Below, piece by piece: positions 11,593 to 51,400 of a stretch of DNA of 64,000 nucleotides. Positions within the stretch are counted from its first letter, which is position 1; each line of letters begins with the position of its first letter. The position numbers were made by a program, and so were the translations under genes. The notes under the pieces were generated by a model. That model was not told the origin of the DNA. It worked only from the letters and a program-made list of their open reading frames with translations, and did not search any database. This DNA comes from Ostreococcus lucimarinus (Eukaryota): NCBI GenBank assembly GCA_000092065.1, contig CP000585.1; one strand, given 5' to 3'.

Positions 11593-13533
11593 TTACAACG
11601 TGTTAAAATCCTTCAAGCCGACGGCGGAAAATTCACCATCGTTGAATTCATCTTCATCGGTAGAGAGCAATCGAGGCGAACGATAAATTCGCATTCTTAA
11701 GTCTCGCGTGGTCTTCAATGCGCGAATCAAGGCGACGCTCGTGGCGAGCCAAAGGAGGAGGATGGCGACGAGGGCAATGGAGAGCGCAGTAGTGCTCGAT
11801 TCCGGTATGTAAGGTGTCTGTGACGCGCCCGTTCTCGCCGCGGTTCCAGCCAATTTGTTTGGACAGACATCCACGTCACGACGGAATATAGCCACATCGA
11901 CGGGCTCCATCGCCTGGGCGGAGATGTCTGGGATGGTGCGGCATGTGCTTGCCTCTCCAGTTCTTTCAAAGTACGTCTGCGCGCTCGTCGTGTTCGCTAC
12001 GCAAGTCGTTCGGCGCCACTCCCAGGTCGCGTGAGTGTCGTTATGAATCGTGAGCGAGCCCGCACCGAAAGAACCCTCCCTGAACGCGCTATACGACGGC
12101 TGAGGTTCCATCCAGGAATTACCGTACGGGCCTTCGTAATTTCCTCCGTCGCCGACGACGACGTGCACGGGACCGCACTCATGCACGTGAAAGTCGTGCA
12201 CCGGATGGGACCTTTCGTAGGCATGCACGTGGCCATTGAACACGAGATCAACGCCCGCGTCGAAAAGGATTTGCTCGAGCGCTTTTCTCATACGTTCAGC
12301 CTCTTTGAAGTGTCCTCGGTTGGAATTGTACCAAGGCGCGTGAAACACGACGACGACCCAAGGGGTATACTGCCGATTGATGGTGGCTAAATCTTTGCGT
12401 AACCACGCCATCTGAGGCGTATCAGCACCATCGTACACCCCAGTCTGCGAGTTGGCGTAGCTATTCAAACCAATGATGTGCGCCTGACCGACTTCGTGAG
12501 ACCAAAACAGTTGCGATGGACTCTTCGATGCTGTGTAAGGGGAGGGATATCGCGCCATGTAGGACACGAGATCCATTCCATTTTGCGCCACGTCGTGATT
12601 TCCAGGCACGGTCAACATCGGCATACCATCCAGCAAGAATTCGCTCAGGGTGCCGAAACTATCCCATCTTGGCGCGAAGCCATCCGCGTACGACACGTCT
12701 CCTGTGTGTATCAACAACTCTGAGTCCCCCAAAGCGTCTCGAACGTGCGTCAGCACCTCCCGCGTCACGTCCGTCTGACCCGTATCGCCCACAACGGCTA
12801 TTTTTGTCGTCTCCTTCCCGTGCTTCTTCGGCGTCTTCGGCGCCCTGAAGCTTCTCGTCGTCTCGCTCCCTGGCAGCGCGTACGAATACCGCTCTCCAGC
12901 CATCAATCCCGTCATCTTCGCCGTGTGCACGATCGGCGAGTGATACACGGCGTCGGGATTGGCGTAATCCAAACACACCCCCTTAGACATCGGCGCGTCC
13001 GTCCAGAAAGCGCTCGGAATCACATCCTCGAACGTCCGCACCGAGCGATAGTTTGAAGCGTCGGCGTCCGCCCACGCCGACGTGTTCGCCAACGTCATCA
13101 GCACCCCCGGATCCACCGCCGGTGTCGTTCCCATGCGCGGCACGAATGCCGTCGGCGATCCGACGCACAACTGCGTCGTGTACGACGCGCTCATCGCCTC
13201 CGCGCGTCGTCTTTGTCTCCCGTCGCTCGCGCTCGCGTAGTACTCCACCGCCGCGTCCTCGTCCAGCGCCTCGCGCGTCGCCCAAACCACGCTCATCTCG
13301 CCCGCGCCCGTCGGCGCCAAGTGCACCTGCGTCACCGCGTCCGCGTCCGCCGTCGCGCGTCCGCGCGTCGCGCGCAGCGGCACCGCGGGCGAAGCCTCGG
13401 GTCGTTGAAATCCCGACGTCATCGACCCCGCGTCCGCCATCGCGCGCGTCCACGCGCGCGCGAACGCCGCGGTCGCCATCGCGCCCGCGCTCGCGCGCCT
13501 CCACGCCGCGCGCGCGCCTCGACGTCGCCCCAT
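11593..13533 (-). CDS. Purple acid phosphatase (metallophosphoesterase) with C-terminal membrane anchor
   Basis: All PAP metal-ligand blocks in order: GDTG, GDVSYADG, GNHD, VFHAPWYNS, GHVHAYER. Followed by a C-terminal TM (ALSIALVAILLLWLATSVALI). ATG 13533 confirmed; later Met codons (MATAAF...) are alternative starts. Confidence 0.85.
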   Translation of the reverse strand: MGRRRGARAAWRRASAGAMATAAFARAWTRAMADAGSMTSGFQRPEASPAVPLRATRGRATADADAVTQVHLAPTGAGEMSVVWATREALDEDAAVEYYASASDGRQRRRAEAMSASYTTQLCVGSPTAFVPRMGTTPAVDPGVLMTLANTSAWADADASNYRSVRTFEDVIPSAFWTDAPMSKGVCLDYANPDAVYHSPIVHTAKMTGLMAGERYSYALPGSETTRSFRAPKTPKKHGKETTKIAVVGDTGQTDVTREVLTHVRDALGDSELLIHTGDVSYADGFAPRWDSFGTLSEFLLDGMPMLTVPGNHDVAQNGMDLVSYMARYPSPYTASKSPSQLFWSHEVGQAHIIGLNSYANSQTGVYDGADTPQMAWLRKDLATINRQYTPWVVVVFHAPWYNSNRGHFKEAERMRKALEQILFDAGVDLVFNGHVHAYERSHPVHDFHVHECGPVHVVVGDGGNYEGPYGNSWMEPQPSYSAFREGSFGAGSLTIHNDTHATWEWRRTTCVANTTSAQTYFERTGEASTCRTIPDISAQAMEPVDVAIFRRDVDVCPNKLAGTAARTGASQTPYIPESSTTALSIALVAILLLWLATSVALIRALKTTRDLRMRIYRSPRLLSTDEDEFNDGEFSAVGLKDFNTL

Positions 13534-13566
13534 CGCGACGCCGCGCCTTTGTCTGCGGAATCTAAG

Positions 13567-14484
13567 ATGCGTCGCGTTTTCGCGTCATCCGCCGTCGCGT
13601 CGCGCCGCATGCCGCGCGTCACCGCCCGCGCGGCGACGCGCGCGCTCGCGTTCGTCTGCGTCCTTCTGACGCGAATCGCGCGCGCGCGCGCGAGCGATCG
13701 CGACTGGAGACGCTTTCGTTCGCCGCCGTTCGATGGACGACCGTGCACCGTCCCGCGCGCGTCGGTCGACGAGCTCTCGCTCGAGACGTTCGCGCGCACG
13801 TTCGAGAGCGCGGAGACGCCGGTGGTCGTCACCGGGCTCGGCGCGCGGCGAACGGGGTTCGTCGAGCGCGTCGAAAGAGGGGCGCTGCTTCGGGAGCTGG
13901 GCGCGGCGACGGTGACGCTGAGCAGCGCGAACGCGCACTCGCGCGGAAAACTTCGGAAGAGCCTGCGAGGATACGTCGAGGAGGACGTGGCGGCGAAGAG
14001 GAGAACGGATGGAAAGGAAGACGCGAGCGAGATATGGTACTGGTTCGGTGATCACGTGGAGAGCGATGGGACGATGTCGAACGGATTCGAGACGCTCTTC
14101 GGGGCGTACGACGATTTAGAATACGTCGGCGACGCGAACGTGGCGTATTCGTTCGGCGTGGGGGGACAGTTTAGCGGAGTGCCGATGCACACGCATGGGC
14201 CGGGGTGGTCGGAGAGTTTGATCGGGAGGAAGCATTGGTTCTTGGCGCCGCCGGACGCGACACCGAATTTCGATCCCAACGTGACGGCGTACGCGTGGGC
14301 GCTGGAGGCGCTGCGCCGGGGGGACGTGCGCGACGGTGAGGGTGGAATTTTAGAGTGCACGGTGAACGCAGGCGAATCGATTTACTTTCCACCGAATTGG
14401 TGGCACGCGACGGTGAATTTGGACGAGAGTGTCTTTATAAGTTCTTTCGTAAATTCAGTACAGCGCGCGCGCGATGAGTTGTGA
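13567..14484 (+). CDS. JmjC/cupin-domain protein with N-terminal signal peptide (JMJD8-like)
   Basis: MRRVFASSAVASRRMPRVTARAATRALAFVCVLLTRIARARA signal-like leader. JmjC core HTHGPGWSESLIGRKHWFLAPP ... ECTVNAGESIYFPPNWWHATVNLDESVFIS. ATG 13567 is only 33 bp from the PAP start on the other strand. Confidence 0.65.
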   Translation: MRRVFASSAVASRRMPRVTARAATRALAFVCVLLTRIARARASDRDWRRFRSPPFDGRPCTVPRASVDELSLETFARTFESAETPVVVTGLGARRTGFVERVERGALLRELGAATVTLSSANAHSRGKLRKSLRGYVEEDVAAKRRTDGKEDASEIWYWFGDHVESDGTMSNGFETLFGAYDDLEYVGDANVAYSFGVGGQFSGVPMHTHGPGWSESLIGRKHWFLAPPDATPNFDPNVTAYAWALEALRRGDVRDGEGGILECTVNAGESIYFPPNWWHATVNLDESVFISSFVNSVQRARDEL

Positions 14485-14502
14485 TATTTATGCAGTGGTT
14501 GG

Positions 14503-17223
14503 TTACTTTTCGGTGAGCTCGCGATAGCCTTTCCATGTCTTGGGCGCGATGAAGTCGTGCTTTTTCATCACCGCGAGTAAACTTTCGCTAGGGCCGTCGA
14601 GCGCTCGCTCGCCTTGCGCGGTGACGTACGTCCTCGTCGTGTGCAAGATTTCCTTCGCTTGAGACCATTCTCCGGCGACGTAATGACGTAAACCTCGCTT
14701 GAAATCTTGCAAAAAGTCCGCCGAAATACCCTCGCGCATTTTTAAAATATCTGGATGCTGCTTAAACTCGTCAGAGTATTCCATGAAGCTCAGCGTCTCT
14801 TCCTCAAACGTGCGATGTAAATTCACGTCGGCGGCGGGCGCCGCGATATTTTCTGGACGCACGTCAAAGGTGTAGAGCTCGACTGGATGCAGCGATCCCT
14901 TTACGGTGACGCAATCGATTTGCCTGCTTTCGTGTTGAACACTTGATGACAGCAAGGATGCGAATTGGCCGGTAAAGAGAAGCGGAACGCCGAATTGCTT
15001 CGTCGCTGCTTCGAGACGAGCGCTGATGTTGACATTCGGAGACAAGTACGAAGCATCCACCTTGTGCTCGCTCCCAATGGCGCCTTCGATCGCCCAACCC
15101 GCGTGAAGACCAAAACCCATCTTCACCTCGAAGTTCTTAATTCGCTCGTTCAGGGCCTCATTCCCGCGATACCGTTGTAACCGAGCGCTGCGCCGCAACG
15201 CTCCGATGATTGTGACGAATGAGGCGAGCGCGTTGTCGGCAATCATCTGAATCTTTCGACGTTTGTGTTCGTCTATATGCGCACAATTCGATATATCCGA
15301 TATATCCTCCGCAGAAATATCTTTAGGAAACTTCCACACCAATAAAAACGCATCGCCAATATTCTTATTCGCGCTCCCGCCGTGCACGTGTACTTCCACG
15401 TGCACAATCTTGGCGATCGTGTTCACAAACTCCATGATGTCCTCCTGTAACACCTCAGTCGTGTCCGTAAATTGCCGGATGTCACAAAACCCGAAAATAG
15501 CAACCATCTTTTTGCCAGGAATCATCGGATCAATCGCACCGCCGCGCTTCATGTTTTCAGCGATAATTTCGGAGCCCGCGTCACCGAATCCGACGGCGAG
15601 GAGAGAGCAAATGCGACAGATACTATTCTCTAGCAGTCGTGTCTCCATCTGATTATTTTCATCGCCACCGGTGATTTCAAATTGTGTCAGTGGATTCTCA
15701 CTCATCGCTTGAATCTTATTCACCATTCGGTCTAGTGGTCGGAGGACCAGAGCGTTGGTGTCTTTGCTGAACAGCACGGCGCCGATGGTGAGAATGAGGC
15801 ACACAAAAATTGTTCGCATGATGTTGAGCAAAGCCTGCAATTGACTCTCGCGCTGTCGATCGAAGAACGCGAAACTGAAACCACTAGGCACGTTTGCATC
15901 TGGTGTAGAAAACGTGGAGAATTCAAATTCGGTACAACGCAGTTTCTTATGCGCGTAACCGTCGAGTGCGAATGAGAGATTGCCATTGTTTGAGTAATCT
16001 GTGCCATTCACCACCAGTCGATACATTCCTTTAGTGCCGGCGTAGTATTGATTTAGCGACCGGTAAAATCCATCCGTTTCGTCGACGCTATTGATCAGGG
16101 TTTCATGCGCCATAGTGAGTCCGCCCTCTGCGAAATCCTGTCGCTCGCCGGCTGCGTACAAGCGGACATCAAACACTGGGAGCATGAAGAGCATGAGTAA
16201 AACGCCGATAATGACCCGTTTCGTCGTCAAATCGCCAAGCTTCTGCCCAACACGAGACTCAGACTGCTCAAAGTCCAACAAAGAATCTTCGTCTTCCTCT
16301 ACATACGCATTTACAGCGTTCTCGTCCATCCCTCCGACGACACTTTGCTTCACCAGACTATCGCGTTTGAGCTTGATCAAACTGTCGCGACGTTCGTTAC
16401 GCTCTCGATTGACTTCGTACGTTTTAAATATCTTCACCAATCGTATCAGGCGTATGATGCGAACGATGCGACCAGCTCGAGTTGCCGCGCGGGAAGCTCG
16501 ACCGGCTTTTGCAAATCCGGCGTCGGCGACGCCACTATCGCCGCCACCCGCGCCCGCCGTTCGAGTAGCTTCATCAAAGGTGGACCCATAAGAGTCGACA
16601 CCTTGACACGGATCCATACCAAGCGCTCGCATGAAAGCCGGAATGTCTGCGAGCAGACTTAACGTCGCCACAGAATCGAGCCAAAAGTAAAATCCTCCCG
16701 CATATTTTTCCAGGGCGAAGACGCTCAGCGCGAGTTCAATCGCGAAGCTCGCCAAGCACACCCACACCAGGACCAAAAACCCGAGATCTGCGTCTGCGTC
16801 GGTTGCGAACAAGCGCAAATCATCCCCGAAAAGGCTCCAAATCGTGATGTTTGCCATCCACATGGAGACGTGCCCGCTTTCGAGCGCCCCTCGAACGCGC
16901 CGCTTGAGCGCCTCGCCGCGCCAGCCCCTCTCGCCTTTCTCGAATTTGGTGCTCTTGCGGCCTTGCACAGTGGACGCGAAGCTCCTATCTCGCGCGGAGT
17001 CAAATATCCCGCTCGTTTTGCACGCATTTACTCCCTCACCACGCTCTTCATCCACGCTCTCACGTTCACCGCGCGATCGATATCTCGCATCGTTGGCGAT
17101 GTCCGCGTGGGCTTCCCCGAGCGTCGTCGAGTTTTGCACGAAGCACGACGCGCGGCGTCGCGCCTGCGTCTGCAAAGCCGCGCGCCTGGATGAATCGACT
17201 TTCTCTCCGTGTGCGTCAGCCAT
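14503..17223 (-). CDS. Voltage-sensor/ion-transport-like membrane domain fused to class III adenylate/guanylate cyclase catalytic domain
   Basis: 906 aa. Six hydrophobic segments include an S4-type RIVRIIRLIRLVKIFK. The C-terminal half carries a cyclase homology domain (FCDIRQFTDTTEVL...NKNIGDAFLLVWKF...MGFGLHAGWAIEGAIGSEHKVDASYLSPNVNISARLEAATKQFGV). ATG at 17223 confirmed. Confidence 0.7.
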   Translation of the reverse strand: MADAHGEKVDSSRRAALQTQARRRASCFVQNSTTLGEAHADIANDARYRSRGERESVDEERGEGVNACKTSGIFDSARDRSFASTVQGRKSTKFEKGERGWRGEALKRRVRGALESGHVSMWMANITIWSLFGDDLRLFATDADADLGFLVLVWVCLASFAIELALSVFALEKYAGGFYFWLDSVATLSLLADIPAFMRALGMDPCQGVDSYGSTFDEATRTAGAGGGDSGVADAGFAKAGRASRAATRAGRIVRIIRLIRLVKIFKTYEVNRERNERRDSLIKLKRDSLVKQSVVGGMDENAVNAYVEEDEDSLLDFEQSESRVGQKLGDLTTKRVIIGVLLMLFMLPVFDVRLYAAGERQDFAEGGLTMAHETLINSVDETDGFYRSLNQYYAGTKGMYRLVVNGTDYSNNGNLSFALDGYAHKKLRCTEFEFSTFSTPDANVPSGFSFAFFDRQRESQLQALLNIMRTIFVCLILTIGAVLFSKDTNALVLRPLDRMVNKIQAMSENPLTQFEITGGDENNQMETRLLENSICRICSLLAVGFGDAGSEIIAENMKRGGAIDPMIPGKKMVAIFGFCDIRQFTDTTEVLQEDIMEFVNTIAKIVHVEVHVHGGSANKNIGDAFLLVWKFPKDISAEDISDISNCAHIDEHKRRKIQMIADNALASFVTIIGALRRSARLQRYRGNEALNERIKNFEVKMGFGLHAGWAIEGAIGSEHKVDASYLSPNVNISARLEAATKQFGVPLLFTGQFASLLSSSVQHESRQIDCVTVKGSLHPVELYTFDVRPENIAAPAADVNLHRTFEEETLSFMEYSDEFKQHPDILKMREGISADFLQDFKRGLRHYVAGEWSQAKEILHTTRTYVTAQGERALDGPSESLLAVMKKHDFIAPKTWKGYRELTEK

Positions 17224-17342
17224 CGCGCGACGCGCGCGCGAAGTGAGGCGCGCGAGCGTTTTTCTCTTCCGAAGAAATGGCGACTGTTCGTCTCCCCTTC
17301 TGCGGCGGTTCGATTGGGATTATATTACAACTGACGCGCGCG

Positions 17343-20300
17343 TCAGCGGGAGTCGGCGCAACACGCGAAACAAGCCATAGACGCCGCGCAACACGCTTTG
17401 TGATACGTGTGCGCGCACATAAAGGTGATGAGCTCGCCGTCGTTGGGGCACAGGAGGGAGTGACTACACGCGGGGCAGCGACGAAGATCCATCTTGATGC
17501 CCCAGTCGCCAAAATCTTCGATGGCGGGCGCGATTGGGTTCTCGTGAGGCACTTTCAGAGTAAATTGTGACACTCCGTCATCAGCATCGGTAGACGAGCG
17601 ACATACAAACGGTAATTGGTCCACGACACCGTCGATCTCCGCCGCGAGCGCGGCTTGGAGCTGTGGAAATCTTCCAAACTGCCGCATGGGTGGCCGCGAT
17701 AAGTGTGCGTCAAGTGGCTCGAGAAGCTTGGCAGCGCCACGGCGTAAGTCCAAATCCACAGAATTTTCGGAAGTCAAGAATGTGGTGACATTTGTGAAAA
17801 TACGACTGAGAGCTCTGGATATGGATTCGTTCGTGTTCATCGGTGATATCGCTTTCGACAACTTCTCCTCTTCTGAAGCCTTGGCAAGCGCTCGAATGAC
17901 TTCCGCCGCTCCAACTGCGGCGGAACCTACGCGCGAGACTAACATAAGATGCGATACGCCGTGCTCGAGAGCCGCAGATGTGTCAGCGCCGTCAAGCGAC
18001 TCTAAAGTCTGGAGAAGCGCCCGCCTAAGACATTCTGATACGATAGCCGACGCTTCTGCAACATCGGTTGATCGAAGCGATGCCACACATTCGGACTCCA
18101 AAGATTGACTCATATCAATCGCACCTCCTTCCGTCAACGCTGCAGTTACACTTGCCATTGTCATTGAGTCCGTCGAATGTTCCGCTGACGCGAGAGACGT
18201 TTGAGTCTCACGATTCTTTGGCGGCGTTTGCTTTTTCACCGCTGCGACGTCGAGCTTGAGTTCATCACACACTGCGTCAAGCTCTTTCTCAACGTTTTCT
18301 AACAGCGAACTCCATTGCAGTTTTATCTTAGCGGTGAGTGGTGCATCTTCGCCCTTTTCAAAGCGTGTCAGAAGTTCAATCGACTCGGCGCGTATATTGC
18401 GCCAACGCCGAAGCGAAGGCAGGAGAATCGACGCGTCGAGGCTCATTCGACACTCTTTAAGTTTCGTGACGGAGTCGACGATCGCGGCGACTCGTACATT
18501 CGTCATAAATCTGTACTGAATCCGAGCGTTTTGCTCGGGCAATGGAGTGTCAGTGGAGTCAAGTGTCGACGTCGTCTTAATGTCTTCGTAACAGCTCCAA
18601 TGCTCAAAATGCGCCCCTCGAATTGGGAGCAAACACTTCACGCTATCCATCGCCTTTTGCCACTCTTGAGCATCGAACGCGTCACACTCTTCCCATTCGA
18701 TGTCATTGTTTGGTAAATCAACCCCGTAATTCTTGGATTTTGTCGGCGAGACTACTTTCACGTTGCTTTGTAGTATGACTGCAGGCTCGTTTGATTCGAC
18801 ATCGTCCAGAATGAGCGCGTGTCGCTTCTTCACCTTTCCATTTGCCTTCGGCGCGAATTCTCCATCTACCTTGGATGTCTTGGAAACGCCACGAGGATTG
18901 TAAAAGAAGATGCCTCCTTCGGTTTCCGCCTTCGGGAACTCGTTCGAAGCTGGGGCAGCCAATTCGGACAATGGTCGATCAATCGTCGAACGATCTCTAC
19001 CGAGAGGTGGTTTTCCGAGATCGAAGTCCGGCGTCTTTGGTGCTTTCGGTGATGATACTTCTTCCTCGGTCACGAGCTCGCGCAGGTCAACTTCGGTGTC
19101 CTTCTTCGCCGGCGCCAACTTCGAGCCCACTTGTTCGCCCCATTGCACGAGAAACGCAAGCCTACTATTTACTCCGGCGGCGTCCGCTTCCGACGAATCC
19201 AACGCCTCTTTCGCCCTTCTGAATAAGCCGTCGTCGTACGAGTTTGTCTTGCGGCAAATGTCTAGGGCACGGATGAATGCACTTGCAGAGGATGTCTCGC
19301 TCACGACGTCATGCGCAAGCGCCTTGGCGTCGACGAATGATTCCAAACACCACACCGAATTCCCACTGTCTTCAGATGGCGTCAGGAAAAACGCTCGATG
19401 ATCAACTGTGCATGCATCGACGAAACCAGCGCTCAAACTTTCGCTCCCTGGCTCTTTTAGGGGATACCATCTAACGATTGCTGGAGTAGCGACGTCGATG
19501 ATGGCGACTGCGCGCTCCGTCGTCGACAACACGCAAGGTCCTAAACGATGCAAGAGGCCAAACTCTAGTTTCTTTGACGCGCGTTTCACCGCATCCGCGG
19601 ATTCACTCGATTGATCCCATCCTGGTACGCTGGAAGGCACTGGCACTTCGGGTTTGATGGTTGCCATGATTTCCACGTCGGCTCGCTCAGAGTCAACATT
19701 GTCCACTTTGGCAATCCACAGCTTACGCCCCGGTCGTGACACCACAGCATGCTCTACTACCCTCACACCTTCTAATTCTTCGTCCCATTCGTCTTCCTCT
19801 TCCACGGGATCGTCATCTTCTACGCTCAAACTTGCGTACCCGTGGAAGCAACTTCCGTACGATCCTTCGCGCTGCTTGCTACCTATATTCGACGTCGTTC
19901 CGCTATGCGCTCCCTGCACAATCACGAGTTGTGCGCTAGATTGTGCGCTTGTTATCACGTGACGACCGCTCGGTGACGCATCGAGCTGATGCACCGCACT
20001 ACTCACGTCTGTGTACGATGTCTTATTCACCGGCGCCGGTCTCGCGCCCGTGCGGCCACCGTCGCACCACTCCACGAACGCTGCGCACGACGTCACCGTC
20101 ACCACCCCTTGATCGCTTCCCGCATACAACACCCGCGAATCGCTCGACCACGACAGCGCCGTGACAGCTCGTCCTTCATGCGTGCTCGACAGAAACGCCA
20201 CCGTCGATCCCAGCGCGCTTCTCCGCGGCGCCTCCTCCCGCGTCAATCCATCGAGCTCAATCACCCTCACGTGTCCATCTGCGAACCCCAGCGCGCACAT

Positions 20301-20699
20301 TCGTCCGCATGGCGACGCTCTGATCGTCCGCACGCTCTGCGGCGCCGCGCGCGCGCCCACATTCCCCTGTCGTCTCGCGCTCGGCTCGACCAATTCCGGC
20401 GACACCACCGCGACGAATCTCGCGCGTCGTTCCACGCCTCCCGCGCCATCATCGCGCGCCCTCGATCGCGCGAACACGTACGCCGACCCAGTGTTCGCCC
20501 CCAAAATCACCAGCGCGCGCGTGGCATCGACGCACGTGAACCGAACGCGTTTAGAGCTCACGGCTCGCAAATCCGCGCTCGACGCCACGCAGCGCCATCG
20601 CGGCGCCATCGCGCCCGCATCGTCCCCCGAGCGCGTCGACGCGACGCTCGCATCGTCCGCGCGCGCGCGTTCGATCGCCGCCGCGTCTTCGTCCGGCAT
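17343..20699 (-). CDS. Large WD40 beta-propeller / alpha-solenoid protein with C-terminal RING-H2 (Vps8-like CORVET/HOPS-type)
   Basis: 1118 aa from the first ATG (20699; the ORF-track M at 20759 is GTG). N-terminal propeller-like repeats (LVILGANTGSAYVF, VTALSWSSDSRVLYAGSDQGVVTV). C-terminal CPAC-x-CAHTYHKAC-x-CFAC RING-H2-like finger. Confidence 0.4.
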   Translation of the reverse strand: MPDEDAAAIERARADDASVASTRSGDDAGAMAPRWRCVASSADLRAVSSKRVRFTCVDATRALVILGANTGSAYVFARSRARDDGAGGVERRARFVAVVSPELVEPSARRQGNVGARAAPQSVRTIRASPCGRMCALGFADGHVRVIELDGLTREEAPRRSALGSTVAFLSSTHEGRAVTALSWSSDSRVLYAGSDQGVVTVTSCAAFVEWCDGGRTGARPAPVNKTSYTDVSSAVHQLDASPSGRHVITSAQSSAQLVIVQGAHSGTTSNIGSKQREGSYGSCFHGYASLSVEDDDPVEEEDEWDEELEGVRVVEHAVVSRPGRKLWIAKVDNVDSERADVEIMATIKPEVPVPSSVPGWDQSSESADAVKRASKKLEFGLLHRLGPCVLSTTERAVAIIDVATPAIVRWYPLKEPGSESLSAGFVDACTVDHRAFFLTPSEDSGNSVWCLESFVDAKALAHDVVSETSSASAFIRALDICRKTNSYDDGLFRRAKEALDSSEADAAGVNSRLAFLVQWGEQVGSKLAPAKKDTEVDLRELVTEEEVSSPKAPKTPDFDLGKPPLGRDRSTIDRPLSELAAPASNEFPKAETEGGIFFYNPRGVSKTSKVDGEFAPKANGKVKKRHALILDDVESNEPAVILQSNVKVVSPTKSKNYGVDLPNNDIEWEECDAFDAQEWQKAMDSVKCLLPIRGAHFEHWSCYEDIKTTSTLDSTDTPLPEQNARIQYRFMTNVRVAAIVDSVTKLKECRMSLDASILLPSLRRWRNIRAESIELLTRFEKGEDAPLTAKIKLQWSSLLENVEKELDAVCDELKLDVAAVKKQTPPKNRETQTSLASAEHSTDSMTMASVTAALTEGGAIDMSQSLESECVASLRSTDVAEASAIVSECLRRALLQTLESLDGADTSAALEHGVSHLMLVSRVGSAAVGAAEVIRALAKASEEEKLSKAISPMNTNESISRALSRIFTNVTTFLTSENSVDLDLRRGAAKLLEPLDAHLSRPPMRQFGRFPQLQAALAAEIDGVVDQLPFVCRSSTDADDGVSQFTLKVPHENPIAPAIEDFGDWGIKMDLRRCPACSHSLLCPNDGELITFMCAHTYHKACCAASMACFACCADSR

Positions 20700-20846
20700 C
20701 GCGCCGCCGCGCGCGCGACTCTGCCGCGCTCCAATCGCCGCGCGTCGCGTTCGACGCACTTCGCGGCGTCACACGCGCGCGCGCGTCTCGCGCCGCGCCG
20801 CGACGCGCATCGCGAGAGACTCGCGCGACGCCGCGCGCGCGCGACG

Positions 20847-23829: not shown

Positions 23830-26448
23830 CTAACGGGGCGAGGCGTCGTCGCCGTTGACGCGCGCGTTGGTGAGAACGTCGTCCTGACGAAGCGCGCCGA
23901 CGATGCAGCCTTGCTCGTCGACGACGGCGATTAAAGCGGCGGAGTCGCGAACGCACATCATGGCGACGTCGCCGACGGTGGTTTCGTCGAGCGAAAGACG
24001 CTCGGGGGCGGCGCTCATGACCTGACCGACGGTAATGTCGGTGCCGACGCAGCCGTCGGCCCGACGAAACGTGCCGACGGGGATGCCAGTTTCGTCGTCG
24101 ATGACGACGGCGTTGACGTTGGCGCCTAAAGACTCGAGCGCGTCGGCGACAGAGTCGCTGCGACGGACGATGTCGCCGCGGCGCATGCACTCGCCCACGT
24201 TTGGAAGCACGGATGCGATCGGTTCGCCCGGCGCGACGCCCTTCTTGAACAGGAGAGGCTCCACGGCGCCGACTTGCACGGCGTTGGCCCAACCGCCTCG
24301 CGGTGGAGGCGCCGGTGAGGCGCCGATGCCTTGCTCGTCGAATTCGTCGTACGACCACGCACCGTCGAGTAAGTCGAGCGCCTGCGTGACGCTCCACACG
24401 TCCGGCTTTTCCCATCGACAGAGCGAACCATTGTGATTTAACACGACGTCGTCGTCCAAGGGATCGAATTCTTGCGCGCCGTCGTCGTCCTCTTCATCGA
24501 ACGATTGCGCCGCGTTGTCGAAGTTGGCGTCACACTCGAGGACTTCCTGGACAAAGAGCGCGACGAGAACACCGGACGATCGGTCGCGAAATACCCTAGC
24601 CGCAGCCTCTTCGTTACCATTCTGAACGCGGAAAATCGCGGCGCGCGCACCCTCGACGTTGCCGGCCGCGGCGCACGCTTCGGCCTCAAACATGTCGCAC
24701 TCGGCTTTGATCTCGCCGCTCTTGTTCTTCCGCTGAAGCTTACTGCTCAGTTTTCGTACCCCTTGCTCGTCGCCGTTCGTCGCCAACAGTCGCATGGCGG
24801 AGAAGTACACGCTCGGACTGATGTACATCTTCTTCTCGTAGCCAAAGTCGAGCGCCGTCAAAGCGGTGTCGATGTCTCCGTACGCCACAAAGGCGTTCAC
24901 GAAGGCGCCGACGACGATGCCGTCTTGCTTCACACCCTTTGCTATGAAACGACTCCAAAGATCCTTCACCACATCGACGCCACCCGCGAATTCACCACCG
25001 ACAATGTCTCGAGCCGCCGCCGTCTCCGCCACCAACGTCGTCGTGTACGAAATTTCATTCGGATGCACGTTGGCGTCTTTGATCCTATCCATTCTTCGCA
25101 GCAACGCGCGGCACCAATCGGGGCGACCAGCCTTGGCGCACGCTGAGATGGTGATGTTGTACGTCACTCTGGTCGGCTCGACGCCAGCCTTGGACATTTC
25201 AGGAAGAATGTTCAAGCATCCCAACGCGTCCTGGCTTCGGGCGCACGCCTTGACGAGCGCGTTCCAAATATACTCGTCTTCGTTAAAGTTGTCGCCGCCG
25301 CGAACGCGTCCTTCCCACGTCGTGATGCGCTTCATAAACGTGCGCGTCCGTCGCACATCACCATTCGTCGCACACGCATCGAGCGCGGCGAAGAGCATGC
25401 GCGTCGTCGCCGTTCGTTTGGGGTGCCATTGCGTTCCCATGTCGTCGCGCTTTCCGTACTTTGGCACGTCGTCCTTTGACCATTTCCACGAACCTCGCAA
25501 GACGATGTTTCCGCGTTTACCTACGCCGAATTTCCCATCCTTCGGCCCGCGGCCCTTCTCCCACTGCTCTAGCAATCCGAGCGCCTCGGTGAGACGCCCC
25601 TGTCTGGCGTATCCCAGCATGAGCGCGCTGTACGCTGGCGCCCCCGCCCCGCACTCGGACACTCCGTCGAGCTTCATCAGGAGCTTGTACGCCGTATCTA
25701 GCTCGTTGCACTTCACGCACGCCCCGATCACCGCACCCATCGTGATCTTCCTCCCCTTCGGCGTGGTCGGTATCGCGGACATCTCCAGCAAATCAAACAC
25801 GGCGTCCAGTCGTCTCGCGTCGCCCAACTCTTTGATCTTCTTCGTCAGCAGTTTCCCGTACAGCGGCCTCAACCCGTACGTCACCTTACCCGAATCTCGA
25901 CTCTGACTCCCCACCGACTGAAAACCTTGCGGCTTCACGCTTCGAATCTCCTCGTCCAGCGCCGCCGCCCGCTCCGGCGTCCCCACGAACGCGTCGTTTT
26001 CCTCGTCGAACGGCGACGCCCACCCATCGTCCTCGATCTCGTGCGCCTCCACCATCGGATCCATCGTCCCCCCCGTCGCCGTGAGATGCTCCCACGCGTC
26101 GAACCCGCGCTCGACGCCACGTCCGCGTCGCCCTCCGCGTTCGCCGCGTCTCCCGCGCGTCGCCGTCCCGTCCCTCGCGTCGTCCCCTCCCTCGTCCCTT
26201 CCCCGCTCGCCCCACGCCGCCGCGCGCGCCCGTTCGCCTCGCCGCGCGTTTCCCGCGTCACCCGCCGTCGTCGCTCGCGCGATTCCGCGCGTTCGCGTCC
26301 TCGCGCGCGCGCCCGCGTCCTCGTCCCGCGCGCGCGTCGCCATCGCGCGCGCATCCATCGCGCGTCGCCATCGCGCGCGCGCGCGTCCGATCGCGTCGCC
26401 GCGCGTCGACGCCGACGTCGACGGCGTCGACGCGATCGTCGCCCGCAT
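23830..26448 (-). CDS. Pentatricopeptide-repeat protein with C-terminal CBS-domain pair, organelle-targeting N-terminus
   Basis: Repeated ~35-aa helical hairpins (VTYNITISACAKAGRPDWCRALLRRM, ISYTTTL...). Tandem CBS-like modules at the C-terminus (VGDVAMMCVRDSAALIAVVDEQGCIVGALRQDDV). ATG 26448 confirmed; the N-terminus is Arg/Ala-rich presequence-like. Confidence 0.6.
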   Translation of the reverse strand: MRATIASTPSTSASTRGDAIGRARARWRRAMDARAMATRARDEDAGARARTRTRGIARATTAGDAGNARRGERARAAAWGERGRDEGGDDARDGTATRGRRGERGGRRGRGVERGFDAWEHLTATGGTMDPMVEAHEIEDDGWASPFDEENDAFVGTPERAAALDEEIRSVKPQGFQSVGSQSRDSGKVTYGLRPLYGKLLTKKIKELGDARRLDAVFDLLEMSAIPTTPKGRKITMGAVIGACVKCNELDTAYKLLMKLDGVSECGAGAPAYSALMLGYARQGRLTEALGLLEQWEKGRGPKDGKFGVGKRGNIVLRGSWKWSKDDVPKYGKRDDMGTQWHPKRTATTRMLFAALDACATNGDVRRTRTFMKRITTWEGRVRGGDNFNEDEYIWNALVKACARSQDALGCLNILPEMSKAGVEPTRVTYNITISACAKAGRPDWCRALLRRMDRIKDANVHPNEISYTTTLVAETAAARDIVGGEFAGGVDVVKDLWSRFIAKGVKQDGIVVGAFVNAFVAYGDIDTALTALDFGYEKKMYISPSVYFSAMRLLATNGDEQGVRKLSSKLQRKNKSGEIKAECDMFEAEACAAAGNVEGARAAIFRVQNGNEEAAARVFRDRSSGVLVALFVQEVLECDANFDNAAQSFDEEDDDGAQEFDPLDDDVVLNHNGSLCRWEKPDVWSVTQALDLLDGAWSYDEFDEQGIGASPAPPPRGGWANAVQVGAVEPLLFKKGVAPGEPIASVLPNVGECMRRGDIVRRSDSVADALESLGANVNAVVIDDETGIPVGTFRRADGCVGTDITVGQVMSAAPERLSLDETTVGDVAMMCVRDSAALIAVVDEQGCIVGALRQDDVLTNARVNGDDASPR

Positions 26449-30086: not shown

Positions 30087-32126
30087 TCACAGCACGACAG
30101 TAAGCGGAGACGGATTCGGAATGAATCGTCGGAGCTTAGGCATGACTGTCGCATCGACGAACTGCGGTCCTTCGATGCTTGTTGGCATCGGGATCAACGT
30201 CGAGTGCGACTCGGCGACGCGCACGTTTGGCGCGTCGGCGTGCATACTTTCTCCCTCCACAAGCACGCGGCTCCATCGCACGTTTCCACGATCTATCGCG
30301 ATGTTGCACAGATTTCCGTTGATCTCACAATGAATCACGTCAACATTCGCGCCACCAGACACGCACACGCCGTCGTTCGCGTTTTTGGAAACATGGCACC
30401 CCTCGACGAGGACGTCAATCTCCTCGGAAGATTTTTCGTTTTCGAAGTCATCCGAGTCTAAATCCATGAGAAATGCGGAAAATTCTTCTTCAAGATCGAG
30501 CTCTTCGTCAGTACCTGCGTCAAATCTCGCAGTAAGGTAGTCGCGGTTCGTGTACCGCTGCGCGATATCGATCCCGTTGAATGCGTTGCCTCGGACTTCA
30601 GAGTGCCGAATCGTGCCCCGACCGCACATTGCGATACCGACACTGGAGTTGTTCGCGACTATCGTGTTAGAAATATTTGCCGTGGAAGATACACCCACGG
30701 AAATACCCGCGCCAACGTTGTTCGCGATGAGGTTGTCGTGGATATTGCCGTGCGCGCAATCAAACAAGACGACGCCATGCGCGAACCCGTTTACGATGCG
30801 ATTGTTGCAAATCTCCACCGGGCCCGACAAAGCCGTGACGGCGGCAAACAAACGATCGTACCCCAAAGACGAAGGTAAGCTTTCGATCTCATCGATGACT
30901 TCCTCTTCGTGCGCGTCTTCGACGCTAGACTTGGCGGCGGTGATTCTGCACGCCGTGAGCGAGCTGCCGCGTCGCGACGTGCTTAAAAACGACGACAGCA
31001 CTGAGTGAATGTTACACGCGTGCACGTGCACCGCGGAGTCTTGCGCCGTCGCCACCACGCCTTCACCAGCGCTCACGATATCGCAACTGTCAAGTCGCAA
31101 TCGCGAGCCGTCGGAAACGTACACGCACGCCTGGTGGCCGTATCCAGACGAGCTGCTGCGTTTCGCAGAGCCCCGTCGCAACAGCGTGACGTTGGTAACC
31201 ACGGACGCGACGGAACGGGAAGCGTTCATCGCCGTCGATGTCATCATCGCTGGAGTTTCGTCGCTCACGATGAGCACGTTCTCTCGTTTGTCGACACCCA
31301 CAATCTCGATCCCGCGAGGAATGGTTAACGATCCTTCGTACGTGCCTTTGCCCAAGCAAACGACGTCGCCCGGCAAGGTGGCGTTGAGAACGCGCTGCAG
31401 CGCGCTCGCCTGCATGACTCCTCCGTCGCATTCAACTCGAATCACGCGCTTACCCGCCACTCGTGCGATTCCTCGGGTTTGCAAACGCTCCTTATAAGCC
31501 CGTCGCCAGCCCTCCCCCCCGCGGAAAATATCTCGGCGCTTTTCGGCGTTGGCGCTCGTGCCAAACACCGACTCGAAAGGCAACCGCGCGCTCCGAGCCC
31601 ACGTCCCGCTCGCCCGCCACCGCCATCGAGCTTCACACAGCGACTTCCACAGCGAATCATCGAGCGTCGCCTCTCGCATCGTCCGAGACGTCAACCCGAG
31701 CGCCTCCACCGTCGCCGCGTCCGCGAACGAGCACGCGTGCGCCAAGCAATCCCGCGGCAAATTCTCGATCTCGCTCCCCCCTCCCGCGCGCACCTCTTCC
31801 CTCCCACTCACATCCCGCGCCGTCTCGCTCGCGCGTCCCTCCCACCGTCGTCGTCCGTCCCGTTCCCGTCGTCCTCGCGCCGCGCGTTCGAACGCGTCCC
31901 GCCCGCGCGCGTCCCCCGCCCCCCCCGACGTCTCCGGCGACCCCACCGGCGTGTCGAACCGCTCCCGTCGCCTCCGTCGCGCGTTCCCGCGTCCGCTCGC
32001 GTCCCCTCGCGCGTCGCTTCGCGCCCAGCGTTCTCCCGCGCGCCTCCGCGCGTCGCCTCGCGCGCGCTGACGCGGCGTCGTCGTCCCATCCATCGTCGCC
32101 CGCTTCCCATCGCGTGTATCGTCCAT
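30087..32126 (-). CDS. F-box protein with parallel beta-helix (CASH/pectin-lyase-like) repeats, FBXO11-like
   Basis: F-box LPRDCLAHACSFADAATVEALGLTSRTMREATLDDSLWKSL. Many right-handed beta-helix repeat units follow (NNRIVNGFAHGVVLFDCAHGNIHDNLIANNVGAGISVGVSSTANISNTIVANNSSVGIAM...). Start set at ATG 32126 (MDDTRDGKRATMDG...); a start at 32093 or 32297 is also possible. Confidence 0.6.
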   Translation of the reverse strand: MDDTRDGKRATMDGTTTPRQRARGDARRRAGERWARSDARGDASGRGNARRRRRERFDTPVGSPETSGGAGDARGRDAFERAARGRRERDGRRRWEGRASETARDVSGREEVRAGGGSEIENLPRDCLAHACSFADAATVEALGLTSRTMREATLDDSLWKSLCEARWRWRASGTWARSARLPFESVFGTSANAEKRRDIFRGGEGWRRAYKERLQTRGIARVAGKRVIRVECDGGVMQASALQRVLNATLPGDVVCLGKGTYEGSLTIPRGIEIVGVDKRENVLIVSDETPAMMTSTAMNASRSVASVVTNVTLLRRGSAKRSSSSGYGHQACVYVSDGSRLRLDSCDIVSAGEGVVATAQDSAVHVHACNIHSVLSSFLSTSRRGSSLTACRITAAKSSVEDAHEEEVIDEIESLPSSLGYDRLFAAVTALSGPVEICNNRIVNGFAHGVVLFDCAHGNIHDNLIANNVGAGISVGVSSTANISNTIVANNSSVGIAMCGRGTIRHSEVRGNAFNGIDIAQRYTNRDYLTARFDAGTDEELDLEEEFSAFLMDLDSDDFENEKSSEEIDVLVEGCHVSKNANDGVCVSGGANVDVIHCEINGNLCNIAIDRGNVRWSRVLVEGESMHADAPNVRVAESHSTLIPMPTSIEGPQFVDATVMPKLRRFIPNPSPLTVVL

Positions 32127-32450
32127 CGGTCCGAGCGTTCGCCGTCGATCGATGGACGCGCGACGTCGCGAGTCACCGCGCCTCCGTCGCGTCGTCGGCG
32201 GGTCGCGTCGCGTCGCGCGTCGCGCGATGGCGATTCGCGGCGATGCGCGCGCGACCGGCCGTCGCCCGACGCGTCTGTTTCCGTACTGTTTGCGCATACG
32301 AGTGTAAAGCGGTCGGTCGCCGCGACCTCGTGGTCCGTGTGTCGACGTTCCGAAAGGCGATCCGACGCCGACGCGCGCGCGCGCGACGACGCGACGCGAC
32401 GCGCGCGCGCGCGCGACGACGACGCGAGCTCGATCGCGGATCGCGTCGCG

Positions 32451-34511
32451 ATGTGCGGGATCTTCGCGTACAGTAATTGGAACTGCCCGAAGAGCCAGAA
32501 GGAGATCGTCGAGAAGCTGCTCACGGGACTGAAGCGATTGGAGTACCGCGGATACGACAGCGCGGGACTGGCGCTCGAGGACGGGGAGGACGTGTCGCGG
32601 ACGACGGCGAAGGTGTTTCGCGAGACGGGGAAGATCGCGAACCTGGAGGGGTTGCTGGAGGCGAGTGAGAAGGATCTGCACGGGGATTTGGTGTTCGAGT
32701 CGCACTGCGGCATCGCGCACACGAGATGGGCGACGCACGGACCGCCGGCGCCGAAGAATTCGCACCCGCACACGAGCGATGAGGAGAATGATTTTTTGGT
32801 GGTGCATAACGGGATCATAACGAATCATCAGGCGCTCAGGGAGACGTTGCAGCGGAAGGGGTACATGTTTGAGAGCGATACGGATACCGAGGTCATTCCA
32901 AAGTTGACAAAGTATTTATTCGATAAATTTCACGATAAGTGCTCGTTCAGACAGCTGGTGATGGAGGTGTTGAGACAGTTGCACGGGGCGTACGCGCTGG
33001 CGTTTAAATCGAGGCATTACCCGGGGGAGTTGGTGGCGGCGAAGCGCGGGTCGCCGTTGCTCTTGGGCATCGCCGAGGGACCGCATCCGGGAGAGCAGCA
33101 CGCGTTGGTGACGAGCGAAGGCTTCGTGCCGACGTCTAAGCGCGCGAAGCGGACGTCGATGGAATTTTACTTCGCTTCCGACGCATCGGCCATGGTAGAG
33201 CACACTAAGCGCGTGTTGCACCTGGAGGACGACGACGTGGCGCACATTCACAACGGAGGGTACGGCATCTATCGCATGGAGAAGATTCACACCGAGGGCG
33301 AAGATTCGCCGAGTTTGGCGTATGCTCCGACGGTGAAATCCGCTGAAGTCGAGCGTACGATTGAGACGCTGACTATGGAGGTTGAGCAAATCATGAAGGG
33401 AAACTTTGATCACTTTATGAAGAAGGAAATTCACGAACAACCGGACGCGATTCAGCAGACGATGCGCGGTCGCGTCGTCTTCGACGCCGACGGAAACGTG
33501 CAACGCGTGTTCCTCGGTGGCATGGTTGATTACTTGTCCACCATTCGACGGTCACGTAGAATAATCTTGTGTGGATGCGGGACGAGTTATAACAGCGCCA
33601 TCGCTGTTCGTCAGCTCATGGAAGAACTGACCGAGTTGCCGGTGACGCTCGAGCTCGCCTCGGACGTCCTAGATCGTCAGTGCCCGTTCTTCCGCGATGA
33701 TTCCATTATTTTCATCTCGCAATCCGGTGAAACCGCGGATACTTTGCGCGCTCTCGAGTACGCGAAGTCCAAGGGGGCGTTGTGCATCGGGATCGTCAAC
33801 GTAGTCGGTTCGGCGATTTCCCGCGCCACCGATTGCGGTCTCCACATCAACGCCGGCGCCGAAATCGGCGTTGCCTCCACCAAGGCTTACACGTGCCAAA
33901 TCACCTCCATGGTGCTCCTCGCCTTGGCTCTCAGCGAAGATTCTCGCTCTCGCGCTGATCGCCGCATGGACATCATGCGCGGCGTCGTCACATTGCCAGA
34001 CACCATGCGCCGTGCGCTCGAGCTCGATCAGAAAATGCTCGCGCTCGCCCGCACTCTCGTGGACGAGAACTCTTTGCTGTTATTCGGTCGTGGTTACAAC
34101 TACGCCACCGCCCTCGAAGGCGCCCTGAAGGTGAAAGAAGTCGCCCTTCTTCACTCTGAAGGCATCTTGGCGGGTGAGATGAAACACGGTCCATTGGCGT
34201 TGGTCGACGAGACCCTTCCTTTGGTCGTCATCGCCACGCGCGATTCCTCCTACCTCAAGCAAAAGTCCGTCATCGAGCAGCTTCGCGCTCGCGACGCGCG
34301 CTGCATCTTGATCGTCAGCGAAGACGATGATTCTTTGGACAAATTCGCCTCGAACGAAGACATGATCATCAAGGTTCCCGAGGTGTGCGACTGCTTGCAA
34401 CCTTTGATCAACATCGTCCCCTTGCAGTTGCTCTCGTATCACCTCACCGTCTTGCGCGGGCACAACGTCGATCAACCGCGCAACCTCGCGAAATCGGTGA
34501 CGGTAGAATAG
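32451..34511 (+). CDS. GFAT: Glutamine--fructose-6-phosphate amidotransferase (GFAT/GlmS)
   Basis: Begins MCGIFAY (Cys2 nucleophile of Ntn amidotransferases). Two SIS domains (GCGTSYNSAIA..., SQSGETADTL) and C-terminal ...LLSYHLTVLRGHNVDQPRNLAKSVTVE. 686 aa; the ORF-track upstream extension is spurious. Confidence 0.95.
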   Translation: MCGIFAYSNWNCPKSQKEIVEKLLTGLKRLEYRGYDSAGLALEDGEDVSRTTAKVFRETGKIANLEGLLEASEKDLHGDLVFESHCGIAHTRWATHGPPAPKNSHPHTSDEENDFLVVHNGIITNHQALRETLQRKGYMFESDTDTEVIPKLTKYLFDKFHDKCSFRQLVMEVLRQLHGAYALAFKSRHYPGELVAAKRGSPLLLGIAEGPHPGEQHALVTSEGFVPTSKRAKRTSMEFYFASDASAMVEHTKRVLHLEDDDVAHIHNGGYGIYRMEKIHTEGEDSPSLAYAPTVKSAEVERTIETLTMEVEQIMKGNFDHFMKKEIHEQPDAIQQTMRGRVVFDADGNVQRVFLGGMVDYLSTIRRSRRIILCGCGTSYNSAIAVRQLMEELTELPVTLELASDVLDRQCPFFRDDSIIFISQSGETADTLRALEYAKSKGALCIGIVNVVGSAISRATDCGLHINAGAEIGVASTKAYTCQITSMVLLALALSEDSRSRADRRMDIMRGVVTLPDTMRRALELDQKMLALARTLVDENSLLLFGRGYNYATALEGALKVKEVALLHSEGILAGEMKHGPLALVDETLPLVVIATRDSSYLKQKSVIEQLRARDARCILIVSEDDDSLDKFASNEDMIIKVPEVCDCLQPLINIVPLQLLSYHLTVLRGHNVDQPRNLAKSVTVE

Positions 34512-38023: not shown

Positions 38024-38734
38024 CGACGCAACCGTTTCGCTTCGCAACCGTCGACGCGCGCCGCCGGTCGCAAAAGAAACAGCGCGCGCTTCGCGCCGGC
38101 GACGCGCCGACCGCGCCGCGGCCCGCTCTCGCGCGCTCCCCGCTCGCCGCTCGCGGCGGCCGGTGACGCAGTTCGGTTCCCCGCCTCGCGCGGTGTCCGG
38201 CGCTCCAACCGCGCCGCGGCGCCCCGTCAGGGACGCCGCGACGCGGACCGCGAGCTCGAAGGCGGACGCGCGATCCGCGCGGATGGATTCCGCGGCCGTC
38301 GACGCGTCGCGGACGCGGCACGCGCGCTCGCCCTCCGCGCGGAGTTACAAGCCACCGCGACGTGACCCGGCGAAACGTTCATGGCGCCGTTCGGCGCGCA
38401 CTACGACGATCGAGCGCTAAAAAATCTAGACGGACGCGTCGGACGCCGCGCGGGATGGAAATTACGGGTTTTTCGTGAAGAAGGGAATCTTAAATCGCAT
38501 CGTCGTCGGCGATCAATCTCGCGCGCGCGGACGCGCGAGACGCGCGTCGCGCGCGCGGATCGATCGTGGATCGATCGCTTGGGTCGATCGGGGGTCAAGA
38601 CGCGCGCGATCGGGCGAGACGGGCGCGCGGACGCGAGAGACGCGGCGGTGCGACGGTGATTATCGACGCGACAGTTGTGGGACGCGCGCGCGCGCGACGA
38701 CGACGACGCGCGCGCGGGGGGGGCGACGGGATCG

Positions 38735-51318: not shown

Positions 51319-51400
51319 CGACGGGCAGACGGCGCGCGCGTCACGGTATGAGGCGCGGCCGCGTGTTATCCATCGGCACTCACGCGCGCCCGCGAGCGCG

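Follow-up and report, generated by a model that had tools for sequence, protein, structure and literature searches.

A candidate voltage-regulated adenylyl cyclase of the AC-alpha family, lacking a canonical K+ pore, in the green picoalga Ostreococcus lucimarinus

The DNA considered here is a window of 64,000 nucleotides (the whole stretch analysed) from contig CP000585.1 of Ostreococcus lucimarinus (assembly GCA_000092065.1), and its subject is one gene, at positions 14503-17223 on the minus strand, that joins a six-helix membrane module to a class III nucleotide cyclase. The best-supported reading, which is considered probable, is that the product works as a homodimer, an adenylyl cyclase under the control of membrane voltage and devoid of a canonical K+ pore. 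The protein is a real and already tabulated member of a known family, not a new kind of protein. The coding sequence is complete and consists of a single exon, with an ATG start, 906 uninterrupted codons and a stop codon, as an earlier note on this DNA had described it. The product matches a protein of O. lucimarinus CCE9901 (XP_001418077.1, ABO96370.1, UniProt A4RXY6, OSTLU_31861) at every residue, so that the public gene model has the same single exon. The database names are "predicted protein" at NCBI and "Guanylate cyclase domain-containing protein" at UniProt. All parts of the protein described below are encoded on the minus strand.

Judged by its sequence, the gene is an ortholog of the AC-alpha family of Paramecium and Plasmodium. 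There are 82 homologs that share sequence words with the protein. Homology extends over the full length in Paramecium tetraurelia and P. octaurelia (P0037/P0038; E about 1e-141, 39% identity), and further full-length homologs occur in Perkinsus, Ichthyophthirius, Vitrella, Stylonychia, Blepharisma and oomycetes. The kinship with the alveolate channel-cyclases is thus closer than the earlier note had implied, and it marks the protein as a family member and not as an independent green-algal invention. The green lineage is represented by Mesostigma, Pyramimonas and many Mamiellophyceae-like metagenome sequences, to which a protein search with residues 520-790 adds a match in Scenedesmus. This search gave 1742 matches; the 120 listed are all fragments of the family, with no bacterial cyclase among the matches listed. 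The membrane module alone is shared by 1094 cluster representatives at E<=1e-10, a number that rises to 2768 at E<=1e-3, and the same membrane-cyclase architecture is found in more than 70 homologs. Since the NCBI and UniProt protein is identical, the homologs number 82 and the membrane module recurs in those 1094 representatives, the feature is not a product of chance. In a neighbour-joining tree, calculated without bootstrap, the green sequences form one clade adjoining the ciliates and Perkinsus.

As presented in citing papers, this family comprises the ion-channel/adenylyl-cyclase fusions of Weber et al. (2004) and Schultz et al. (1992). The Ostreococcus protein (XP_001418077) was tabulated as a homolog, together with one Bathycoccus and one Coccomyxa protein, in a 2025 Phytophthora paper (PMC12223298, Supplementary Dataset 2), where a row "Chlorophyta, green algae, 1" gives a single copy for each green alga, as compared with 6-16 in ciliates (Supplementary Fig. 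4c). Homologs of the cyclase domain in Ostreococcus tauri and Micromonas had been recorded in 2016, with the membrane part unmentioned (PMC5159850). The novelty that the earlier note saw in a green-algal cyclase of this kind is therefore limited. Ostreococcus is without flagella (PMC5508029). According to the same paper, it is also without orthologues of class III cyclases, a statement that the gene contradicts.

The count of six membrane helices is supported by hydropathy and by two AlphaFold2 models, the full-length one having a predicted local distance difference test (pLDDT) score of 76.9. The modelled limits are 117-140 for S1, 143-170 for S2, 178-201 for S3, 232-293 for S4, 324-351 for S5 and 457-509 for S6, and both termini of the protein are cytosolic. 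The voltage-sensor domain S1-S4 (residues 117-270, 16414-16875) is recognized by its signature residues, whose conservation is given here as counts in a 72-sequence family alignment. The charge-transfer centre consists of the S2 pair F160-x-x-E163 and of D183 in S3, and the outer acidic residues are D134, D135, D146 and D193. F160 is kept in 71 of the 72 sequences, E163 and D135 in all of them and D183 in 70, and D146 and D193 are conserved too. S4 itself (residues 242-270, 16414-16500) bears nine basic residues with a spacing of mostly three positions (R242, R245, R249, R252, R255, R258, R261, K264 and K267), each of which is arginine or lysine in 67-72 of the 72 sequences; the family median for the S4 window is 10 basic residues. 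The ladder first noticed, RIVRIIRLIRLVKIFK, corresponds to residues 252-267 and proves to be part of a longer one that runs from R242 to K267.

Two Pfam domains had been proposed as a check on this architecture, and they gave different results: Guanylate_cyc (PF00211) was found above its threshold, whereas Ion_trans (PF00520) reached 20.0 bits on the 906-residue query, under the cut-off of 25, over profile positions 36-115 of 241 (S2-S4). Because of this sub-threshold score, the assignment of a voltage sensor needed further support. Ion_trans is above threshold in six of eight scanned homologs (26-33 bits), over profile positions of about 2-121 of 241 only. The family profile of S1-S4 matched the Shaker Kv channels in the PDB with E=7e-7; in this alignment R255, R258, R261, K264 and K267 stand opposite Shaker R1, R2, R3, R4 and K5, and F160 and E163 opposite the F-x-x-E pair of Shaker S2. 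An S1-S4 voltage sensor in the Ostreococcus protein is well supported.

S4 continues as a helix to about residue 293 and leads into a long cytosolic S4-S5 connection (residues 271-323, 16255-16413), which is disordered in its second part (pLDDT <50 at 292-322) and little conserved (0.18). A conserved interfacial helix follows together with S5 (residues 324-351, RVGQKLGDLTTKRVIIGVLLMLFMLPVF; 16171-16254), with a conservation of 0.69. One homolog, a Logan metagenome protein of 980 residues (P0057), has an EF-hand pair directly after S4 (residues 229-292; EF-hand_7, 31.7 bits). This insert in the S4-S5 connection points to a variant of the voltage-sensor cyclase that is modulated by Ca2+.

The Ostreococcus protein has no canonical pore domain, a point on which sequence profiles and structure models agree. 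The Ion_trans matches of the query and of the scanned homologs end after S4, and neither the profiles nor the models contain a pore helix or a selectivity filter between S5 and S6. The absence of GYG from this loop, stated in the earlier note, extends to G[YF]G, which is also missing there and is present between S5 and S6 in only three of the 72 family members. The 105 residues in question (352-456, 15856-16170) are modelled as a folded alpha/beta ectodomain of two helices and three strands, with a pLDDT of about 80-90 in both models, and they include two N-x-S/T sequons. Across the homologs, this segment varies in length from 85 to 228 residues and its conservation is 0.31. The low conservation, the range of lengths, the rarity of G[YF]G and the modelled fold identify it as a variable ectodomain and not as a pore helix with a filter. 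The description of the membrane module as an ion-channel-like domain of six helices consequently holds for the number of helices and for the channel-like S1-S4, but not for an S5-P-S6 unit, since S5 and S6 flank a folded ectodomain. A Foldseek search of the membrane-only model, ectodomain included, gave no match in the PDB at E<=1e-3; a LapD-like periplasmic domain, retrieved with E=1.8, was disregarded.

S6 and its cytosolic extension form a stalk (residues 457-509, 15697-15855) that contains the invariant P496. The helix lies in the membrane at 457-486 and in the cytosol at 487-509, and it is followed by a connector with the invariant P511. A HAMP domain between S6 and the cyclase was considered here and rejected for lack of support: the Pfam match has E=0.12 and 13.1 bits against a cut-off of 25, and the family profile of residues 484-562 matched no HAMP protein in the PDB.

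These two regions bear on the idea that the protein is mainly a receptor-type cyclase, whose S5-S6 ectodomain would sense a ligand or condition outside the cell, with S1-S4 acting only as anchor or modulator. The confident fold of the ectodomain and its two N-glycosylation sequons are in keeping with such a receptor; the helix-connector-helix arrangement that follows, with its faint likeness to HAMP, could be the transmitter, and the bacterial proteins composed of two helices, a sensor, a linker and a cyclase provide the model. However, the ectodomain is poorly conserved and very unequal in length, its fold finds no significant match and the HAMP likeness is unsupported by the profile search. 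In addition, it is S4 and the charge-transfer residues that are strongly constrained, unlike the ectodomain. A receptor of this kind is accordingly regarded as very unlikely.

Between the stalk and the cyclase lies the pre-catalytic helix (residues 526-559, METRLLENSICRICSLLAVGFGDAGSEIIAENMK; 15547-15648), which is helical in both models and, with a conservation of 0.70, represents the most conserved stretch of the whole protein. It includes the motif VGFGDAG (residues 544-550, 15574-15594), overlooked in the earlier note, which is the "GXG after TM6" (transmembrane helix 6) motif that figures in the literature as a putative K+ pore loop. Indeed, a GXG after this helix has been described for the channel-cyclase family and is a partial basis of the K+-channel idea (PMC3283738). 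G545 is kept in 70 of the 72 sequences, F546 in 68 and G547 in all, and G550 is invariant as well. The G545-F546-G547 triplet sits about 60 residues past the membrane part of S6, on the cytoplasmic side, and both models place it within the helix that leads into the catalytic domain.

From the sequence comparisons and the models, it can be reasoned that the GFG helix is the equivalent of a cyclase transducer element and not a pore loop. It is read in this way because it is a cytosolic helix in the models, because it is co-linear with rhizobial cyclases and because it occupies the position of a transducer element. The cyclase transducer element has been described as a unit of about 19 residues with a conserved helix-breaking pair (PMC13466520), and that of Cya2 carries an -FGRY- motif (PMC5995499). 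BLAST against three rhizobial class III cyclases gave alignments with E=1e-17 to 1e-21 that begin at residue 531 and place LLAVGFGDAGSE-IIAENMKRG against LLxTYVGPHASEQILAGATxRG, directly upstream of the rhizobial catalytic core. Other observations limit the assignment. The linker segment taken alone has no significant match to the rhizobial cyclases, the alignment of bPAC and OaPAC with the family profile of residues 524-640 sets in only at the catalytic core, and the helix is unbroken in the AlphaFold2 models. Two invariant glycines of the pre-catalytic helix could serve as helix breakers.

HMMER also displayed a resemblance between the GFG helix (LLxVGFGxAGxEIIxxNM..G) and strands beta4-beta5 of the cyclase (MGFGLHAGWAIEGAIGS), that is, between residues 540-570 and 700-733 (15547-15648 and 15100-15200). 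It appeared as a second domain in the comparison with bPAC, with an insignificant E >900, and is probably due to chance.

The GFG motif is likewise the point of departure for a different account, in which the protein would be a bifunctional K+ channel and adenylyl cyclase, the GFG after S6 would be an unconventional pore loop and either ion flux or potential would control the cyclase. In the citing literature, a bifunctional channel-cyclase is presented as having been first proposed for Paramecium, and the Paramecium members are tied there to hyperpolarisation-driven cyclic AMP (cAMP) formation and to an intrinsic K+ conductance observed with the purified native cyclase. The near invariance of the GXG after the sixth helix also speaks for a channel, as does its likeness to the xxGFGD filters listed for protozoan K+ channels (PMC3283738). 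On the other side, the GFG is cytosolic and lies in a modelled alpha-helix abutting the cyclase, it aligns co-linearly with the linker that precedes the catalytic core in soluble bacterial cyclases, in which a membrane part is missing, and the S5-S6 interval contains neither a pore helix nor a filter. The dimer of class III cyclases fits a four-fold pore poorly. Moreover, reviews of the family call channel activity unconfirmed for its recombinant proteins, while reporting that the Paramecium cyclase reacts to hyperpolarisation and that PfAC-alpha makes cAMP (PMC12414865, PMC5746546, PMC10651576). A combined channel and cyclase is therefore considered unlikely.

The catalytic part is a class III, IIIb-like adenylyl-cyclase domain (residues 571-787, 14863-15513), established by Pfam, by alignments and by Foldseek. 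The Guanylate_cyc profile scores 32.2 bits over residues 574-784, its cut-off being 21.9. Alignment to bPAC and the rhizobial enzymes locates the metal-binding D581 and D624, the substrate-defining K620 and S725 and the transition-state residues N732 and R736, so that the catalytic domain is complete, as had been claimed for it. These roles are well established for class III cyclases, and a Lys together with a Thr or Ser is typical of the class IIIb adenylyl cyclases. With the full model as query, the best Foldseek matches were OaPAC (E=3.5e-10), bPAC and Spirulina CyaC (TM-score 0.73 on target). Because all six catalytic residues are present on one chain, a homodimer should be catalytically active. 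The full hexad occurs in 43 of the 72 family members, including all green-algal and Paramecium ones.

The remaining 29 of the 72 members have no complete hexad. In all oomycete members (P0062-P0070), Ile and Ala/Ser replace both metal-binding aspartates and, given this loss, the proteins are probably inactive or partner-dependent.

Taken together, these parts suggest how the preferred reading, a voltage-regulated cyclase without a pore, could operate. Class III cyclases must dimerise, and two subunits would therefore associate through their cyclase domains. A change in membrane potential would move the arginine-rich S4, and the motion would be passed through the conserved interfacial helix to S5, to S6 and to the cytosolic helix-connector-helix stalk, and from there to the transducer-like GFG helix. 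The interface of the cyclase dimer would be re-set as a result, with altered synthesis of cAMP. S5 and S6 would flank the folded, variable ectodomain and form no pore, and a small TPR-like cap would follow the cyclase. The Ostreococcus protein would thus be an enzyme under voltage control, in analogy to Ci-VSP or SLC9C1. As regards the polarity of the response, activation by hyperpolarisation is suggested only by analogy with the Paramecium cyclase.

The ends of the protein complete its anatomy. The N-terminal cytosolic tail (residues 1-96, 16936-17223) is predicted to be disordered (pLDDT about 30) and is poorly conserved, with a mean majority-residue fraction of 0.15 across residues 1-110. 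The C-terminal helical domain (residues 835-906, 14506-14721) is conserved and confidently modelled (pLDDT >89). Its motifs are Y848-x-x-G-x-W853, which corresponds to one TPR-like repeat, D876-G-P, W897-x-G-x-R and a terminal LTEK; the matches to TPR-like profiles are marginal (PcrH, E=0.03). A TPR-like domain after the cyclase is said to have been noted in AC-alpha-type proteins by Weber in 2004. Every homolog bears the precomputed label PF26726 ("Helical_RasGEFs"), even short fragments that consist of residues 520-790 alone (14854-15666). An NCBIfam scan of the protein gave no match, as expected for a eukaryotic protein.

The gene lies in a densely packed region. A Cupin_8/JmjC-like open reading frame (13213-14484, plus strand) is convergent with it, and 18 bp separate the end of this frame from the cyclase stop codon. 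The upstream gene, encoding an HPS5-like beta-propeller (17343-20759, minus strand), ends 119 bp before the cyclase ATG, and this very tight packing leaves little room for a promoter. An independent Logan contig of 19 kb carries the cyclase gene with the same neighbours; those present on both contigs encode the HPS5-like beta-propeller, the Cupin_8-like protein, a purple acid phosphatase and a homeodomain protein. The G+C content is 0.52-0.56 in the cyclase gene and its upstream neighbour (14001-20000) as compared to 0.64 in 12001-14000. Equally low values are found elsewhere in the window, at 42-48 kb and 52-54 kb, and the composition of the cyclase gene consequently looks like ordinary gene-to-gene variation.

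It is in this setting that an artefact has to be weighed, namely that two adjacent genes were read as one frame, or that the gene is a contaminant or a recent transfer. Nothing speaks positively for it, the base composition being a mild oddity that other parts of the window share. Against it stand the uninterrupted frame of 906 codons and the identical NCBI model, and also the recurrence of the architecture in the more than 70 homologs, among which are complete MMETSP transcripts (P0011, P0022, P0025) and proteins from ciliate genomes. Conservation within the protein is highest in the linker that joins its two halves, the flanking genes are ordinary Ostreococcus nuclear genes and the green-algal sequences keep together in the tree. 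An artefact of this sort is hardly credible.

Other genes of the window are of lesser concern. At 51098-53860 on the plus strand, about 34 kb from the cyclase, lies a gene for a bicarbonate transporter of the SLC4 type (HCO3_cotransp in Pfam, E=5e-134). Class IIIb cyclases include bicarbonate-responsive enzymes, but the proximity of the transporter to a class IIIb-like cyclase is most likely a coincidence in a eukaryotic genome. The large open reading frames at 38675-44902 and 31479-34511 (plus strand) and at 23830-26448 and 30087-32828 (minus strand) are ordinary nuclear genes with no evident functional tie to the cyclase; their products are a DOCK-family guanine nucleotide exchange factor of 2075 residues, a glutamine-fructose-6-phosphate aminotransferase-like protein (GATase and SIS), a PPR protein and an F-box/beta-helix protein.

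The significance of the gene lies first in its host. A 2025 viewpoint in the FEBS Journal states that such cyclases "appear restricted to protozoans", and the main text of PMC12223298 regards the family as restricted to stramenopiles and alveolates, despite the green algae in its own supplement. The green-algal clade (Mamiellophyceae, Pyramimonas, Mesostigma and Scenedesmus) contradicts the statements that confine the family to protozoans, to stramenopiles and alveolates, or to flagellated and ciliated organisms. What the present analysis adds is evidence against a pore domain, an alternative role for the GFG and the persistence of the family in non-flagellate green algae.

A wider proposal is that the whole AC-alpha family, the Ostreococcus protein among its members, consists of pore-less voltage-sensor enzymes, with the "K+ pore loop" as a transducer element and with a core job that is the conversion of plasma-membrane potential into cAMP and not a ciliary one. 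This generalisation is put forward tentatively, as a possibility of some weight. On the pore-less reading, the retention of the gene in the non-flagellate Ostreococcus, Bathycoccus and Coccomyxa would make its core job a general potential-to-cAMP conversion.

Whether the family members are channels, voltage-regulated enzymes or both is a question that has stood since 1992 and 2004. Voltage sensors coupled to effectors other than a pore are rare, and Ci-VSP, Hv1 and SLC9C1 are, to our knowledge, the known examples; we also know of no characterisation of the cyclase-coupled voltage-sensor family as recombinant protein. An intron-less and catalytically complete ortholog of 906 residues could be a practical subject for electrophysiology and structural work and for a voltage-to-cAMP tool, and the close relative O. 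tauri is genetically tractable. If the pore-less reading is true, the compact Ostreococcus version would serve well as a model on which to settle this 30-year-old problem of channel or sensor.

Several known systems share individual parts with the Ostreococcus protein. The bacterial and cyanobacterial class IIIb cyclases (OaPAC and bPAC, Spirulina CyaC and the plasmid-encoded enzymes of rhizobia) have the same catalytic fold and residues, including the pair of Lys and Ser/Thr, and a helical linker likewise enters their catalytic core; their sensors, however, are BLUF or other soluble domains, and none has a voltage-sensor domain. The voltage-gated cation channels (Shaker/Kv, Nav, Cav and HCN) are alike in the S1-S4 fold, the F-x-x-E pair, the S3 Asp and the S4 arginines. 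In contrast to them, the Ostreococcus protein has no S5-P-loop-S6 pore domain and, in place of their short amphipathic S4-S5 helix, it has a connection of about 50 residues that is partly disordered. With the Ci-VSP type, the likeness is that of the voltage-sensor structure and the analogy is functional only. [quoted passage not shown]

The closest counterparts are the AC-alpha proteins of Paramecium, Tetrahymena and Plasmodium and the oomycete proteins PPTG_13136 and PPTG_13761 (PMC12223298), in which the parts follow one another in the same order from end to end. This order consists of S1-S4 with many arginines in S4, S5, a variable ectodomain, S6, the helix ET..LE..I.KI..LL.VGFG(E/D)AG and a single class III cyclase, and the C-terminal domain with its Y..G.W, DGP and W.G.R.LTEK motifs is shared as well. 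The family has been discussed as protozoan, as stramenopile and alveolate, and as ciliary, whereas the host is here a non-flagellate green picoalga. Its complete catalytic hexad sets the Ostreococcus protein apart from the oomycete members, in which neither metal-binding aspartate is left.

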